DNA of 64,000 nt from Vicinamibacterales bacterium. GTDB lineage: Bacteria; Acidobacteriota; Vicinamibacteria; Vicinamibacterales; UBA2999. Shown here piece by piece: positions 23,417-62,352 of this stretch. The stretch is taken from contig JBEBGV010000001.1 of assembly GCA_040081265.1 (NCBI GenBank), positions 28,279-92,278 of the forward strand. The letters run 5' to 3'. A program made the translations under genes and the position numbers. Below the pieces are notes generated by a model. That model worked only from the letters and a program-made list of their open reading frames with translations, did no database searches and was not told the DNA's origin. Numbering within the stretch: position 1 is the first letter of the stretch; the number at the start of each line of letters is the position of its first letter.

Positions 23417-23488
23417 GGCGGGTCCTGCGGGACCCGCCCTACGTACTGTTTGTTTGGAGGTACGTAGGCCGGGTCCGCAGGACCCGGC
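23417..23488. repeat. REP-like palindromic elements, inverted pair (BIME-like)
   Basis: GGCGGGTCCtgcgGGACCCGCCCTACGTAC (23417-23446) and GTACGTAGGCCGGGTCCgcaGGACCCGGC (23460-23488) lie between two convergent gene ends. Confidence 0.85.
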
Positions 23489-42742: not shown

Positions 42743-43735
<993 letters not shown>

Positions 43736-43747
43736 GACTCGCGTCTG

Positions 43748-43788
43748 TTTCGTAGGGCGGTACGTAGGGCGGGTCGAAACGACCCGCC
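43748..43788. repeat. REP-like element (one full unit plus a partial duplication of the head)
   Basis: The partial TTTCGTAGGGCG is followed by GTACGTAGGGCGGGTCgaaacGACCCGCC (43760-43788). Confidence 0.8.
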
Positions 43789-43793
43789 GGCCA

Positions 43794-54041: not shown

Positions 54042-55154
54042 CTATAAATAGAGGTGCAGTTGCAGGAGCACCGTGTGGATCGGGGTGCTGCCGCTCGGCT
54101 TGTCGCGATAGTAGGTGGTGTTCACGTTGACGTGGGTGCGAGGCAGAAGCGTGGCCGAGAGCGCCAGCCTGACGATCTGCGGCTGGGGCCCTGACTCGGT
54201 GCGAATCTGCGGTGACACCTTCAACCACAGGCCGCGAACGGCCTCGAAGGCGGTCTCGTTGACGAACACGAACGACGCGCCGTTGAGGTCGTCGCCGCGT
54301 ACGTCTCCTTGTGACCAGATCGTCAGCTTCGATGTGGGCGCAAACCCGAACGCGAGGCCCGCGGAACCCTCTTTCGGCGCGATGTCGGATTCAGCACGGA
54401 AGAGGCCGGAACCGACCACTGTCATCGCCGGTCCGAGATCGAGTTGCCATCGGCCTGATGCGTTGAACGATCGCGCCCGCTCATCGTCGATGATCGACTC
54501 GGCGAGCCCGGGCGACACCATGACCTGAACCAGGGAGCGGGACGTGTTGCGGCTGACCTCGAACCCGTAGACCTGGTCGTACTTGTCGAACCCGAGCCCG
54601 ACTCGGTTGTACGAGGTGTGATCGGCCAGGTGCACGCCGTAAGCAGGAAAGAATCGGCCGGCTCTGAAACCGAGGCCGCTCGTCGATTCGTAGGCCGCCC
54701 AGTGTTCGTAGGAACCGAAGGTCGGCTCGGGTTTCAACTCTCGACCGGCTTCCCCGTAGAACGTCCAGCCGTTCTTCTGAACCGCCGCAATGATGTCGGC
54801 GTTCATGAGGATGTTGCGGGAATCGGTGAAGCCGGCAAACGACGAGCGCACGCGCGATGGCCTGAGCTCGGCTCCGAGCTGCAGCGGTCCCAGCTTGTCG
54901 CCCAACGCGCCCCACAGGAACTGGGCCTCGGGCTCCGGAGCTGGATTGTCCGGGTCGACGGTTCCGCGATTGCCCGTCGTCGAGAGCTCACGGCTCGAGA
55001 GCGAACGGCCATAGGACGAGAGCAGGCCACCGCCGGCTGGAGAGATATGACACGACGTGCAGCGCGTGTACTGCTTCGACAGAAATGCCGGCTCCGCACC
55101 AGCCAACGACGCGAACAACACCAGGACCGCGGCGAAAGCGACGACACTTCTCAT
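54042..55154 (-). CDS. Secreted single-CXXCH (monohaem c-type) protein fused to a porin-sized beta-rich domain; candidate Cyc2-like cytochrome-porin
   Basis: Signal peptide MRSVVAFAAVLVLFASLAGA. The only two Cys residues lie in C32-T-S-C-H36 (nt 55047-55061). The remaining roughly 330 aa have alternating amphipathic strands and G/S/D/N turns, ending LLQLHLYL. The start overlaps the YceI stop (ATGA). Confidence 0.6.
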   Translation of the reverse strand: MRSVVAFAAVLVLFASLAGAEPAFLSKQYTRCTSCHISPAGGGLLSSYGRSLSSRELSTTGNRGTVDPDNPAPEPEAQFLWGALGDKLGPLQLGAELRPSRVRSSFAGFTDSRNILMNADIIAAVQKNGWTFYGEAGRELKPEPTFGSYEHWAAYESTSGLGFRAGRFFPAYGVHLADHTSYNRVGLGFDKYDQVYGFEVSRNTSRSLVQVMVSPGLAESIIDDERARSFNASGRWQLDLGPAMTVVGSGLFRAESDIAPKEGSAGLAFGFAPTSKLTIWSQGDVRGDDLNGASFVFVNETAFEAVRGLWLKVSPQIRTESGPQPQIVRLALSATLLPRTHVNVNTTYYRDKPSGSTPIHTVLLQLHLYL

Positions 55155-55804
55155 CGAGCATTCTCTCCAGACGAGGCTTCGAAGGTGACCTGTACGGTCA
55201 CCTGTTCTTTCACCCCGACGCCGAGATATCGGGGCTTGGCGATGCCGAACTCTTCGAGCACCACCGGAAACGACGCGCGCACGCGAATGCCTGATCCGCT
55301 GCGCCGAAGCTCCGCTTGTCCGGTCACGGCCCGTTCGGCGCCATGCAGGCGGAGCCGCGCGGTGAACGTGCCCTTGCCGACAGGTTCCGCGCCGGCGATT
55401 CCGCTGAGCCTGACGTCGGACAACACGGCGCGTGCGAAGTCGGGACCCTTGCCGACCTCGAGGTAATTGTCGCGCAGGTGCTGATTACGCAGGCTGATCC
55501 CGGTATCGAGCGCAGTGAGATCGACGATGAACTGACCGGCCCAGGGGTCGGCCGGGGTCGGGCCCGGCATGACCGAGCCACTCAGCAGTTTCGTTCTGGC
55601 CTCGAAGCTGCCGCCGATCGTCAGCGGACACTGCACGCGCACATCGCCTTCGCGGGCGACGAACGTTCCGGCGGTGCGTAGGGCGGGTCCAGTCTGTTCC
55701 GATGTACGTAGGCCGGGTCCAACCTGTCTTGATGTACGTAGGGCGGGTCCAAAGGACCCGCCGAACAGGCCCACGACTAGCGCAACCGTCCAGATCTGCG
55801 TCAT
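55151..55804 (-). CDS. YceI-family protein carrying an in-frame REP-derived 3 x 10-aa insertion after the signal-like segment
   Basis: The C-terminal roughly 170 aa are YceI-like (FIVDLTALDTGISLRNQHLRDNYLEV..., GTFTARLRLHGAERAV). The N-terminus reads MTQIWTVALVVGLFGG, then SFGPALRTSRQV/GPGLRTSEQT/GPALRTAG encoded by REP copies. Confidence 0.75.
   Translation of the reverse strand: MTQIWTVALVVGLFGGSFGPALRTSRQVGPGLRTSEQTGPALRTAGTFVAREGDVRVQCPLTIGGSFEARTKLLSGSVMPGPTPADPWAGQFIVDLTALDTGISLRNQHLRDNYLEVGKGPDFARAVLSDVRLSGIAGAEPVGKGTFTARLRLHGAERAVTGQAELRRSGSGIRVRASFPVVLEEFGIAKPRYLGVGVKEQVTVQVTFEASSGENAR
55674..55762. repeat. Three direct REP-derived units with 30-bp period inside the YceI coding sequence
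   Basis: GTGCGTAGGGCGGGTCC+13 nt; GTACGTAGGCCGGGTCC+13 nt; GTACGTAGGGCGGGTCCaaaGGACCCGCC. Only the last unit keeps the hairpin partner arm. Confidence 0.85.
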
Positions 55805-55805
55805 C

Positions 55806-56363
55806 TCACACGGTGAAGGTCAGCGTCGTCCCGCTGACCTGGGTCGGATACTGCGTCAACGCGCGGTTCGCTGGACCCGACGCGACACTGCCGCTGGTTG
55901 TGAACTGTGAGCCGTGAAAGGTGCACACATACCGACCATCCGCAAACCCTGTGACGGTGTTGGATTCGTGGGTGCAGGTTGCGTTGAGCGCCGTGTAGGT
56001 ATCTTGCCCGGTGTGTGCGACCAGGAACGCCCCGAGCGATGTTCTGACCAGCGCGGCCGATCCGACTGGGGTGAGGGCGGCGGCACCGTCCAAGGCGATC
56101 GACACCAGGCGCCCGGCAACGGTCGCGTTGACCGAGGCGAGTGGCGGGGCTGACACACTCGACGGCGAGGCAGGACCTCCGCCACAGCCGACGATGGCTC
56201 CCGCCGCAAGAAAGGACGCCGCCATGCAGGCACGGCTGCAGAATTCACGGCGGGTATGGACTTCGAACTCCGGGGATTTGTTCACGGGCGGCTCCACTGG
56301 GGCAGGCACGCGCCTGAAGTTAGCAAGAATCGGGACACACGCCCCCGCCCACGTGAACGCCAA
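55806..56363 (-). CDS. Rieske [2Fe-2S] domain protein with Tat-type signal and lipobox
   Basis: Contains CTHESNTV...CTFHGSQF (the Rieske CxH...CxxH ligands), TRREF twin-arginine followed by AAGAIVGCGG. The start codon is uncertain (no internal ATG before the signal; possibly GTG). Confidence 0.75.
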   Translation of the reverse strand: MAFTWAGACVPILANFRRVPAPVEPPVNKSPEFEVHTRREFCSRACMAASFLAAGAIVGCGGGPASPSSVSAPPLASVNATVAGRLVSIALDGAAALTPVGSAALVRTSLGAFLVAHTGQDTYTALNATCTHESNTVTGFADGRYVCTFHGSQFTTSGSVASGPANRALTQYPTQVSGTTLTFTV

Positions 56364-56435
56364 TTTCTTCCGGTTTTCTGCCTGAGGTACTGACCAGTCT
56401 GGGAAGCGCTTACGGTCACCGTCCTCGACAGGTAA

Positions 56436-56868
56436 CTACTGAACAGCCAGCAGCTCGATGTCGAAGATCAGCGTCGCATTGCCGGGGATGGGAGGGTTGC
56501 CTGCTGACCCGTATCCGAGGCTCGGCGGGATGATGAGCCGGCGCTGGCCACCCACCCGCATTCCTGGAACGCCCCGAATCCCAGCCCTGAATGACTCCTC
56601 CGGTCCCCAATGTGAAGGGGAACGGGGTTCGGCCAGGGGACAGCGACGAGTCGAATTGGGCGCCCTTGTTGCCCACGGCATTAGCGTCGTAGAGCCAGCC
56701 GGTGTAGTTCACGGTCAGGCGCCTGCCGTTGACCGCCTCCGCACCGGTGCCGACCACCAGATCGGTCTGCGAAAACGGCACGTTGGCTGACGGGGCCGTG
56801 GGAGAGGACGAGGAACCGCACGCGCTGACCGCGAAGACGGCACAGACAATCCAGTATCGAACGTTCAT
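56436..56868 (-). pseudogene. FKBP-type peptidyl-prolyl isomerase lipoprotein gene with a +1 frameshift (or a sequencing error)
   Basis: Frame A reads MNVRYWIVCAVFAVSACG...[28 protein letters not shown]. Frame B continues [44 protein letters not shown]-stop. The switch occurs at the C4/G4 run 56572-56575. Confidence 0.65.
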
Positions 56869-57031
56869 GAAAAGGCCTCTGGCCGTGCTCGACGGACCTG
56901 ATGGGGCGCTGACCTCTTCATGGTAGCTGAGGCAGGCGCTCACACGCGCATCGCGGGTTTTAGGCTAGTATTCAGCGTTCGCCCCGACGCCTCCGGCGGA
57001 AGACAGGTGGCAGAACACAAGGAGAGATCGA

Positions 57032-61365: not shown

Positions 61366-62256
61366 ATGCCACGACGCGCGAGCCCTCCGGCCGAGGTAGA
61401 TGTCACAGAGTCCCTGGTGCGGGCTCTTCTCGAAGAACAGCACCCTGACCTCGCGGCCCTGCCTCTCACCGCTGCAGGCGCCGGGTGGGACAACGCGCTC
61501 TTCCGGCTTGGGGATTCCTTCGCGGTGCGGCTGCCTCGCCGCGCCGTGGCCGAACCGGGTCTGCTCAACGAGCAACGATGGCTGCCACAACTCGCCCCAC
61601 GACTACCGCTTCCGGTGCCCGCGGCGGTCCGGCTCGGCGTCCCAGGTTGCGGCTACCCCTGGAGCTGGTCCGTCACACCGTGGTTTGAGGGCAGGGTCAT
61701 CGAAGGTCCCACGCTGGGGCACAAGGCCGCGACGACGCTCGGCCAGTTTCTCGCTGCGCTGCATGTGCCCGCGCCGTCCGACGCGCCGGTCAGTCCATTC
61801 CGTTCCGTGGCGCTTGCCTCACGTGATGAGCGGTTGCGCAGCAACGTTGCGGACCTCGAGGGCATCGTGGATGGCGGTCGGGTTCTGAGGTGCTGGGATG
61901 AGTGGCGACGTGCGACCCCCTGGCCGGGACCGCCCCTCTGGGTGCACGGCGACCTGCATCCGTACAACGTTCTCGTCTCTGGCGACGACTTCGCGGCCGT
62001 GATCGATTTTGGTGACGTGTGTGCGGGAGATCCCGCTGTTGATCTCGCGGCCGGGTGGATGCTGTTCGCAGCGGCGGCTCGAGCGACGTTTCGCGCCGCG
62101 TACCGTCAGGAGGCCGTAGACGACGAGCAGCTCTGGATACGGGCGCGTGGCTGGGCGCTGGTGCTCAATCTCGTCTGGCTGGTTCAAGCTGCCGATGACG
62201 AACCGACGACGCGTCAGACGCTGGCGACGATAGAAGGACTGGTGGGTGGTGACTAG
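61366..62256 (+). CDS. Aminoglycoside phosphotransferase (APH) family kinase-like protein
   Basis: Contains GWDNALFRLG, VHGDLHPYNVLV and IDFGDVCAGDPAVDLA. Only the last 296 codons of track ORF 60304..62256 are coding. Confidence 0.8.
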   Translation: MPRRASPPAEVDVTESLVRALLEEQHPDLAALPLTAAGAGWDNALFRLGDSFAVRLPRRAVAEPGLLNEQRWLPQLAPRLPLPVPAAVRLGVPGCGYPWSWSVTPWFEGRVIEGPTLGHKAATTLGQFLAALHVPAPSDAPVSPFRSVALASRDERLRSNVADLEGIVDGGRVLRCWDEWRRATPWPGPPLWVHGDLHPYNVLVSGDDFAAVIDFGDVCAGDPAVDLAAGWMLFAAAARATFRAAYRQEAVDDEQLWIRARGWALVLNLVWLVQAADDEPTTRQTLATIEGLVGGD

Positions 62257-62258
62257 TG

Positions 62259-62321
62259 AGTTCCTAGTTCCTGGTTCCTGGTTCCTAGTTCCTGGTTGCT
62301 GGTTGCTGGTTGCTGGTTGGG
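62259..62321. repeat. Heptanucleotide tandem repeat, 9 units in two blocks
   Basis: AGTTCCT AGTTCCT GGTTCCT GGTTCCT AGTTCCT GGTTGCT GGTTGCT GGTTGCT GGTTGGG. It starts 3 nt after the APH stop and abuts a REP unit. Confidence 0.9.
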
Positions 62322-62323
62322 AC

Positions 62324-62352
62324 GTACGTAGGCCGGGTCCGAAGGACCCGGC
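62324..62352. repeat. REP-like element
   Basis: GTACGTAGGCCGGGTCCgaaGGACCCGGC. Confidence 0.85.

Follow-up and report, generated by a model that had tools for sequence, protein, structure and literature searches.

Can a repetitive extragenic palindrome (REP) settle inside a protein-coding gene and be translated with it, and what becomes of the protein? This question is raised by a YceI-family gene in a stretch of 64,000 nt (the window) from an uncultured Vicinamibacterales bacterium of the phylum Acidobacteriota (assembly GCA_040081265.1, contig JBEBGV010000001.1, positions 28,279 to 92,278 of the forward strand), in which three REP heads stand in tandem between a hydrophobic N-terminus and the YceI domain. 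The original prediction had described the array as an in-frame insertion that the gene had either tolerated or exploited as a linker. The evidence gathered here makes it probable that the array is a selfish REP insertion which is translated and tolerated. The gene and the parts of the array are as follows.

55151-55804, minus strand: YceI-family gene of 217 codons, from the conserved ATG through the array (open reading frame, ORF; Pfam PF04264)
55674-55690, plus strand: REP unit 1, head-only (GTGCGTAGGGCGGGTCC), without its own complementary arm
55704-55720, plus strand: REP unit 2, head-only (GTACGTAGGCCGGGTCC), without complementary arm
55734-55762, plus strand: REP unit 3, complete, with head GTACGTAGG, stem GCGGGTCC, loop AAA and arm GGACCCGCC, an inverted repeat of 9 nt with 100 % complementarity
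55691-55703 and 55721-55733 (region 55691-55733), plus strand: two 13-nt spacers flanking unit 2, AGTCTGTTCCGAT and AACCTGTCTTGAT
55661-55673, plus strand: possible REP-derived extension GAACGTTCCGGCG, a weak candidate seen by eye
55757-55795, minus strand: hydrophobic signal-like segment I4-G16 (IWTVALVVGLFGG), aligning with the hydrophobic cores (h-regions) of orthologue signal peptides

Three copies of GTRCGTAGGSCGGGTCC are present at 55674-55762 of the plus strand with a period of exactly 30 nt. The order on this strand is GTGCGTAGGGCGGGTCC, AGTCTGTTCCGAT, GTACGTAGGCCGGGTCC, AACCTGTCTTGAT, GTACGTAGGGCGGGTCC, AAA and GGACCCGCC, with the 17-nt copy of unit 3 at 55734-55750 and the arm at 55754-55762. 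The units are 77 % alike over 30 nt and the two spacers identical at 8 of 13 positions. Tandem Repeats Finder reported the region 55677-55752 with a period of 30, 2.5 copies, 84 % matches, no indels and a score of 110. RNA folding yielded for GGCGGGTCC-AAA-GGACCCGCC a perfect 9-bp stem with -18.2 kcal/mol (z = -5.3); the two remaining units of 30 nt came to -1.4 and -6.0 kcal/mol, no better than shuffled sequences. Thus, the exact 30-nt period of three direct copies was borne out by the coordinates and Tandem Repeats Finder, and the restriction of the complementary arm to the last copy by the inverted repeat and the fold energies; the translation quoted in the original prediction is identical to the ORF 55151-55804. 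In the entire window, the 17-mer had 11 matches with at most two mismatches, 0.09 being expected from shuffled sequences. The head-only units were also considered as decayed full REPs, an origin that was rejected, as, compared by eye, no more than 3-4 of 9 spacer positions agree with the 5' arm that would be expected. Compared as hairpin-loop remnants, as in the array loci L015 and L032, the 13-nt spacers were dissimilar to the AAAGGACCCGCC of the terminal unit. The sequence GTCTGTTTCG, resembling the 13-nt spacer, also precedes the REP head at 43740-43760, which suggests that the spacer is part of an extended element. The extension GAACGTTCCGGCG has the motif GTTCCG in common with spacer 1 and encodes T44-F48; if REP-derived, it would possibly have exchanged a conserved Trp for Phe.

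A REP of this type is a short hairpin, rich in GC and headed by GTAG, of the class mobilised by REP-associated tyrosine transposases (RAYT, TnpA-REP) (Nunvar 2010 PMC2817692; Bertels & Rainey 2011 PMC3116915; Di Nocera 2013 PMC3733652). The window has seven REP sites. Further copies are at 23430 (minus)/23460 (plus), 43760 (plus), 46678 (minus), 51281 (minus)/51307 (plus), 57619 (minus) and 62324 (plus), those at 23430/23460 and 51281/51307 forming head-to-head dimers. Every copy has a GTAC-GTAG-G head directly 5' of the stem, and the other copies consist of a 9-bp GC-rich stem (SCGGGTCC), a loop of 3-4 nt and a complementary arm. On a gene map based on the GC content of third codon positions, six of the seven sites are extragenic; most follow closely on the 3' end of a gene, and many separate convergent genes. 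The REP at 62324 overlaps only a shadow ORF; the real plus-strand gene there stops at 62256. Hence, the claim that the element is strictly intergenic elsewhere is true for the window. With its hairpin, its GTAG head and its multicopy, extragenic and dimeric occurrence, the repeat is a GTAG-type REP. A search for RAYT genes with the regular expression HUH...Y..NP in six-frame translations was without result in the window and in 50 fetched loci, a weak test based on the motif only. Two details of the extragenic copies were observed: the REP at 43735-43790 has a partial second head (GTCTGTTTCGTAGGGCGG-TACGTAGGGCGGGTCG), and a 7-nt tandem repeat (GTTCCTG, 8.4 copies, 92 % matches) lies at 62260-62319, between the stop of a phosphotransferase-like gene (62256) and the REP at 62324-62352.

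The host gene has coding sequence on both sides of the array, 14 codons upstream from the ATG and 173 downstream including the YceI domain. Pfam family PF04264 was matched with E = 1.4e-12 (48.7 bits, cutoff 23.7) over residues 66-210, 562 homologues were found, and the solved structures 2x32 and 2x34 are related with E = 3e-7. In the ORF, M1-G16 are hydrophobic, G15-T44 are REP-encoded and the fold begins at about T47. The REP-encoded residues 15-44 read GGSFGPALRTSRQV / GPGLRTSEQT / GPALRT, of which the complete REP (55734-55762) encodes G15-T24 on its opposite strand. An AlphaFold model built on the orthologue alignment had a mean pLDDT (predicted local distance difference test) of 84.7 with a barrel from residue 48; residues 1-47 had a pLDDT of 52-56 without secondary structure, and beta-strand 1 covers residues 48-61. 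In this model the insert is placed outside the folded core, at the boundary of h-region and mature domain; alignment and model thus agree with the position proposed from the letters alone, between the hydrophobic N-terminus and the YceI fold.

Orthologues lack the insert. In an alignment of 32 sequences, with the window sequence as one row and 30 orthologues, the approximately 30 extra residues were absent from all 30 orthologues, as the original prediction had proposed to examine; their signal peptides run straight into a conserved block, xW.VR.GDVRV.CPLTIGG. All orthologues carry N-terminal hydrophobic signal-like leaders. Ten orthologous loci (L001-L005, L010-L014) had no copy of the REP core. 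With the REP-encoded residues removed, the protein of the window would approximately read MTQIWTVALVVGLF..AGTFVAREGDVRV, resembling the short signal peptides of the homologues P0061 and P0093. The only relatives with more than 90 % identity are the NCBI protein itself and P0121, encoded on the ENA contig L051. This contig of 665 nt at 1.2x coverage is about 98 % identical from about codon 62-63 and unrelated upstream (1-190); it is probably chimeric and, if so, uninformative on the array and its copy number.

Whether the array is translated depends on the start codon, and three features frame this decision.

55802-55804, minus strand: ATG start, one base after the Rieske TGA (55806-55808); same junction in L005, L010 and L011
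55634-55636, minus strand: GTG (V57), NCBI-annotated start of a 161-aa product (P0001 / MEQ1756753.1), judged not to be the true start
55806-56363, minus strand: Rieske [2Fe-2S] gene, upstream (Pfam PF00355, E = 1.5e-9; synteny in L005, L010, L011 and L012)

The junction of Rieske stop, one base and ATG recurs in L005, L010 and L011, while L012 has an overlapping TGATG. From this arrangement the YceI gene is predicted to be translationally coupled to the upstream Rieske gene, and the ATG at 55804 is favoured as the positionally orthologous, ancestral start. The codons G53-D-V-R-V57 were compared in six loci and had synonymous differences only (GGC/GGA/GGG, GAT/GAC, GTG/GTC/GTT, CGC/CGG, GTG/GTC); codons upstream of V57 are therefore under constraint at the protein level, and in the alignment with the 30 orthologues the conserved block begins upstream of V57. 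Between the array and G53 there is no in-frame ATG, GTG or TTG, and a start at V57 would leave the product without any export signal. This agrees with the claim that no start downstream of the array retains such a signal. As strand 1 comprises residues 48-61, a start at V57 would also truncate the barrel.

We infer the following course of events. A GTAG-type REP would have lodged early in the YceI gene, where the signal core gives way to the barrel. It lies antisense to the gene, an orientation that is stop-free in every frame. A segment of head, 5' stem arm and 13 nt would then have been reiterated in tandem, giving three heads at 30-nt period with the hairpin in the last unit only. Slippage stimulated by the hairpin, or cleavage and rejoining by a RAYT, may have produced the head-only reiteration; a site-specific mechanism is hinted at by units that always begin at the head and end before the 3' arm. 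The gene would have gained about 90 nt or 30 codons, so that reading from the ancestral ATG, coupled to the Rieske gene, would continue through the array, which would be read as a disordered stretch rich in Gly, Pro, Arg and Thr (residues 15-44) before beta-strand 1. The array would thus be translated from the ancestral ATG, and the YceI protein is presumed to be still exported. The insert would persist because the frame is kept and the position lies outside the fold, and it may be regarded as a selfish or near-neutral decoration rather than an adaptation. Two functional roles of the array were rejected. Phase variation is excluded by the 30-nt unit, which is unable to switch the frame. A larger regulatory RNA structure was not apparent: the fold of the 191-nt 5' region (z = -1.5) showed no structure other than the single REP hairpin, which lies about 40 nt 3' of the ATG, outside the initiation footprint. 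With Rfam at gathering thresholds, the entire window gave a single tRNA and no match at the array.

That the insertion is tolerated is favoured by analogy with other arrays inside genes. Public contigs were scanned for two REP heads 26-34 nt apart, which revealed four loci in genomes representing species and 36 in metagenome contigs. Including the window, 37 distinct arrays were obtained, 30 outside genes and seven inside genes and in frame. The genes with in-frame arrays outside the window are listed by locus.

L039 1412-1461 (Ga0137376_10168337): RimO-like methylthiotransferase gene, two heads, period 33; array at about amino acids 131-150, between UPF0004 (2-101) and Radical_SAM (190-360)
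L008 3917-3990 (= L037; Acidobacteria metagenome-assembled genome (MAG) MELF01000003.1): HisB gene, two heads, period 30, in frame
L009 3069-3170: ComEC-like gene, in-frame array
L032 1180-1290: TamB-like gene, in-frame array
L036 1281-1390 (= L046): gene of a TPR membrane protein, in-frame array
L024 2718-2790: NtrC-like regulator gene, in-frame array; no other start before RVLVVDDE

The RimO-like gene is the clearest case in the middle of a gene. In the hisB gene the ATG overlaps the hisC stop and no other start precedes the conserved RRATIDRRTTET, making it a second gene with an N-terminal decoration. The arrays in the ComEC-like, TamB-like, TPR and NtrC-like genes have periods of 21, 30 or 33 nt. 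A period divisible by three was found for all seven arrays inside genes and for 12 of the 30 outside (Fisher one-sided p = 0.0049; p = 0.039 for the four mid-gene cases alone), although this test is partly circular, since an array was defined as inside a gene by an unbroken spanning frame, and to that extent it loses weight as support for a tolerated insertion. Only frame-preserving expansions were seen in intact genes, a simple signature of selection filtering the expansions of selfish DNA. Five of the six frames of the REP are open, and the arrays inside genes are read in four different ones, as GPALRT, GTRPTY, RDPPYV and VRRAGP; four frames with unrelated peptides argue against selection for any particular peptide.

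The half-unit architecture of the YceI array is common among the arrays of the scan, most of which are intergenic. Many consist of head, 5' arm and part of the loop, with the 3' arm in the last unit only; head-only arrays that end in one full hairpin are present in L007, L008, L015, L021, L023, L024, L026, L027, L030, L032, L034-L036, L039, L041 and L048. The unit periods include 30 nt in L008 and L036 (the latter with spacings of 21 and 30 nt), 33 nt in L032 and L035, and 29 nt in L034. On the Acidobacteria MAG contig JACPZW010000085.1 (L007, 4400-4600, minus strand), five head-only units of 26 nt are followed by two full REPs, and a DEAD-box helicase gene takes its TAG stop from the first head. 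Locus L047, related to L039, contains the same array and diverges right after it, by a rearrangement or a chimeric assembly at the REP. One array of acidobacterial type was found on a contig labelled as a Bifidobacteriaceae MAG (L006, CAZGLC010000062.1, about 63-70 % GC); the label is probably a binning error.

Besides the circularity of the period test, several observations weigh against a translated and tolerated array. The NCBI pipeline annotates the 161-aa product that starts after it, at V57 (MEQ1756753.1, labelled 'MAG: Vicinamibacterales bacterium'). A Shine-Dalgarno-like GAAGG motif is located 5 nt upstream of a GTG at V55, so that internal initiation is conceivable. Di Nocera et al. 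warn that REPs at the N-termini of ORFs are often extragenic owing to miscalled starts (PMC3733652). Finally, the hydrophobic core is not preceded by Lys or Arg and is followed by R23, R26, R33 and R43.

The first three points would be explained if YceI started at the GTG of V57 or V55, with the REPs in the spacer between the Rieske and YceI genes and acting at most as an RNA element; all other REPs of the window are extragenic. We consider this unlikely. A start at V57 loses nine of the 14 residues of beta-strand 1 together with the invariant or near-invariant GDVR motif, and the exclusively synonymous codon differences in six loci imply translation of this part. The product would lack a signal peptide, unlike the orthologues, although the orthologous start junction is kept upstream. 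There would be no reason for the ATG and the domain to share a frame, a coincidence to be expected by chance in about 1 of 3 cases which would in addition need 30 stop-free codons. The original prediction had named a downstream non-canonical start as the finding that would overturn it; such a start is annotated, yet the orthologous junction and the codon evidence favour the ATG. The public record of 161 aa thus almost certainly truncates the YceI protein. REPs at 5' ends can mislead gene callers on start codons in either direction, and start-junction synteny together with synonymous-site patterns resolves such miscalls.

The charge distribution concerns the fate of a translated array. In Sec export (positive-inside rule, export-initiation domain), an N-terminal region without positive charge and Arg residues after the core disfavour translocation. 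The N-terminal region (n-region) MTQ is without Lys or Arg ahead of the h-region IWTVALVVGLFGG; cleavage is conceivable at GGS|F but not at SFG|P, where Pro occupies +1, and Arg residues follow at +6 and +9 (read from the sequence). Export may be impaired by the missing N-terminal positive charge and the Arg-rich REP-encoded residues after the core, and through export the insert may be mildly deleterious. In a more severe form, the array would be translated but damaging, with poor export or tethering to the membrane, and the gene, perhaps the whole cluster, would be under relaxed selection. A net charge of +3 within 30 residues after a core that has no positive charge before it, the displacement of the LRAQG-type cleavage context of the orthologues by about 30 residues and a 1-nt frameshift that splits an FKBP gene two genes upstream speak for a damaging array. 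Yet the mature domain retains all 36 invariant columns of the 32-sequence alignment, in which the window is included, without stop or frameshift; the FKBP frameshift could be a base-calling error of the MAG, and other genes bear such arrays between essential domains. A damaging array is considered unlikely.

A far-reaching generalization would be that REPs of Vicinamibacterales-like lineages systematically make in-frame peptide insertions, with half REPs of head and 5' arm, always starting at GTACGTAGG and stopping ahead of the 3' arm, reiterated site-specifically by RAYT cleavage and rejoining rather than by random slippage; repeats of 7-11 codons would have been added in this way to YceI, RimO, ComEC, TamB, HisB and NtrC-like genes, and the YceI signal peptide would perhaps have been turned into a tethered or differently processed N-terminus. 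We regard this as doubtful.

Much less credit is given to a beneficial role. The REP-encoded stretch might have been co-opted as a flexible linker or tether, e.g., holding the barrel off the membrane on an uncleaved signal anchor; it is disordered, rich in Gly and Pro and located exactly at a domain boundary, and no AxA-type cleavage site is read in the sequence after the hydrophobic core. However, no orthologue in the alignment has the stretch, the arrays inside genes encode unrelated peptides in four frames, and a hydrophobic segment of about 13-15 residues is short for a stable anchor, so that co-option is very unlikely. Of the two possibilities raised in the original prediction, toleration was upheld by the analogy with the other in-gene arrays and exploitation as a linker found no support. 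An assembly artefact is highly improbable: the source is a metagenome-assembled genome with a 1-nt frameshift in a nearby gene, and REPs can cause chimeric joins, as indicated by abrupt divergence near REPs in L047 versus L039 and in L051, but the array spans just 89 nt, its units differ at 7 of 30 positions and so do not look like a perfect repeat that had collapsed or expanded, both flanks are colinear with the orthologous loci, and the same architecture is present in dozens of independent assemblies.

A translated, tolerated insertion has precedents. Di Nocera et al. described GTAG REPs inside genes of several species, with GTAG/CGTC REPs in frame in Opitutus terrae, Thauera and others, often as dimers or groups; they encode 20-30 aa and in clusters up to 82 aa, have an N-terminal excess with many cases flagged as annotation errors, and were read as neutral insertions in linkers or termini (PMC3733652). 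The same study reports tandem reiteration of REPs with flanking DNA and cites the in-frame elements of Rickettsia (PMC3733652). The REPs of the window agree with known GTAG REPs and REP doublets forming hairpins (REPINs) in the 9-bp stem, the 3-4-nt loop, the GTAG end, dispersed copies, dimers, the preference for gene 3' ends and tandem clusters. They differ in the host, an uncultured member of the Vicinamibacterales (Acidobacteriota), in that a motif search of the 64-kb window and the fetched loci detected no RAYT gene, and in arrays that are mostly half units of head and 5' arm ending in one complete hairpin, a detail not found described by Di Nocera et al. (PMC3733652). As in the intragenic REPs of that study, the array is in frame and N-terminal in a gene for a known protein; here it lies between the signal peptide and the mature domain of a protein predicted to be exported, and the start was checked by synteny and synonymous sites, not by annotation. 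Palindromic elements of Rickettsia (RPE) offer a second comparison. Ogata and co-workers reportedly found them in the year 2000 in frame in protein-coding genes, compatible with the fold and absent from orthologues; RPEs are said to be about 100-150 bp long, typically single insertions, and to belong to other sequence families, some of the CGTC type. The selfish palindrome in the YceI gene is likewise in frame, compatible with the predicted fold and absent from orthologues, and differs by its 30-nt tandem head array. A literature search on RPEs in signal peptides gave nothing relevant. Compared with YceI-like polyisoprenoid-binding proteins (PF04264; nearest solved structures 2x32/2x34), the predicted barrel and the signal peptides of the orthologues are in keeping with a lipid-binding protein of the periplasm. 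What sets this protein apart is a REP-encoded addition of about 30 residues ahead of strand 1, and a signal-like segment that lacks an N-terminal positive charge. Clusters of GTAG REPs inside genes are already published, the literature on intragenic REPs and RPEs reaches back to 2000-2013, and no new question is opened; new are the host lineage, the location at the signal/mature junction, the checked start and the half-REP detail. The locus provides a clean example, from a poorly studied phylum, of an intragenic REP cluster placed where signal peptide and mature domain meet.

The neighbourhood of the YceI gene is conserved in the order Rieske gene, YceI gene and 377-aa gene. In the window, the third position is occupied by the following gene.

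54042-55154, minus strand: 370-aa gene without Pfam family, downstream, overlapping the YceI stop by 4 nt; conserved operon partner

Wherever an orthologous locus extends far enough, YceI is followed by a homologue of 377 or 378 aa. Some loci (L001-L004, L013-L014) lack the Rieske gene present in L005 and L010-L012, and in these loci without it the FKBP gene is directly followed by a YceI gene with a longer N-terminus; operon composition therefore differs among relatives. The FKBP-type lipoprotein gene of the window (56416-56943, minus strand) is split over two frames: the match to orthologues passes from frame -2 to frame -3 at a junction near 56573-56577 with one extra base (GAT-T-CGGGG), which would make it either a pseudogene or a base-level error of the MAG. 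A CxxCH motif (CTSCH) and a signal-like N-terminus make the 370-aa product a candidate haem-binding protein and, taken with the Rieske gene, point to a possible redox function of the operon.

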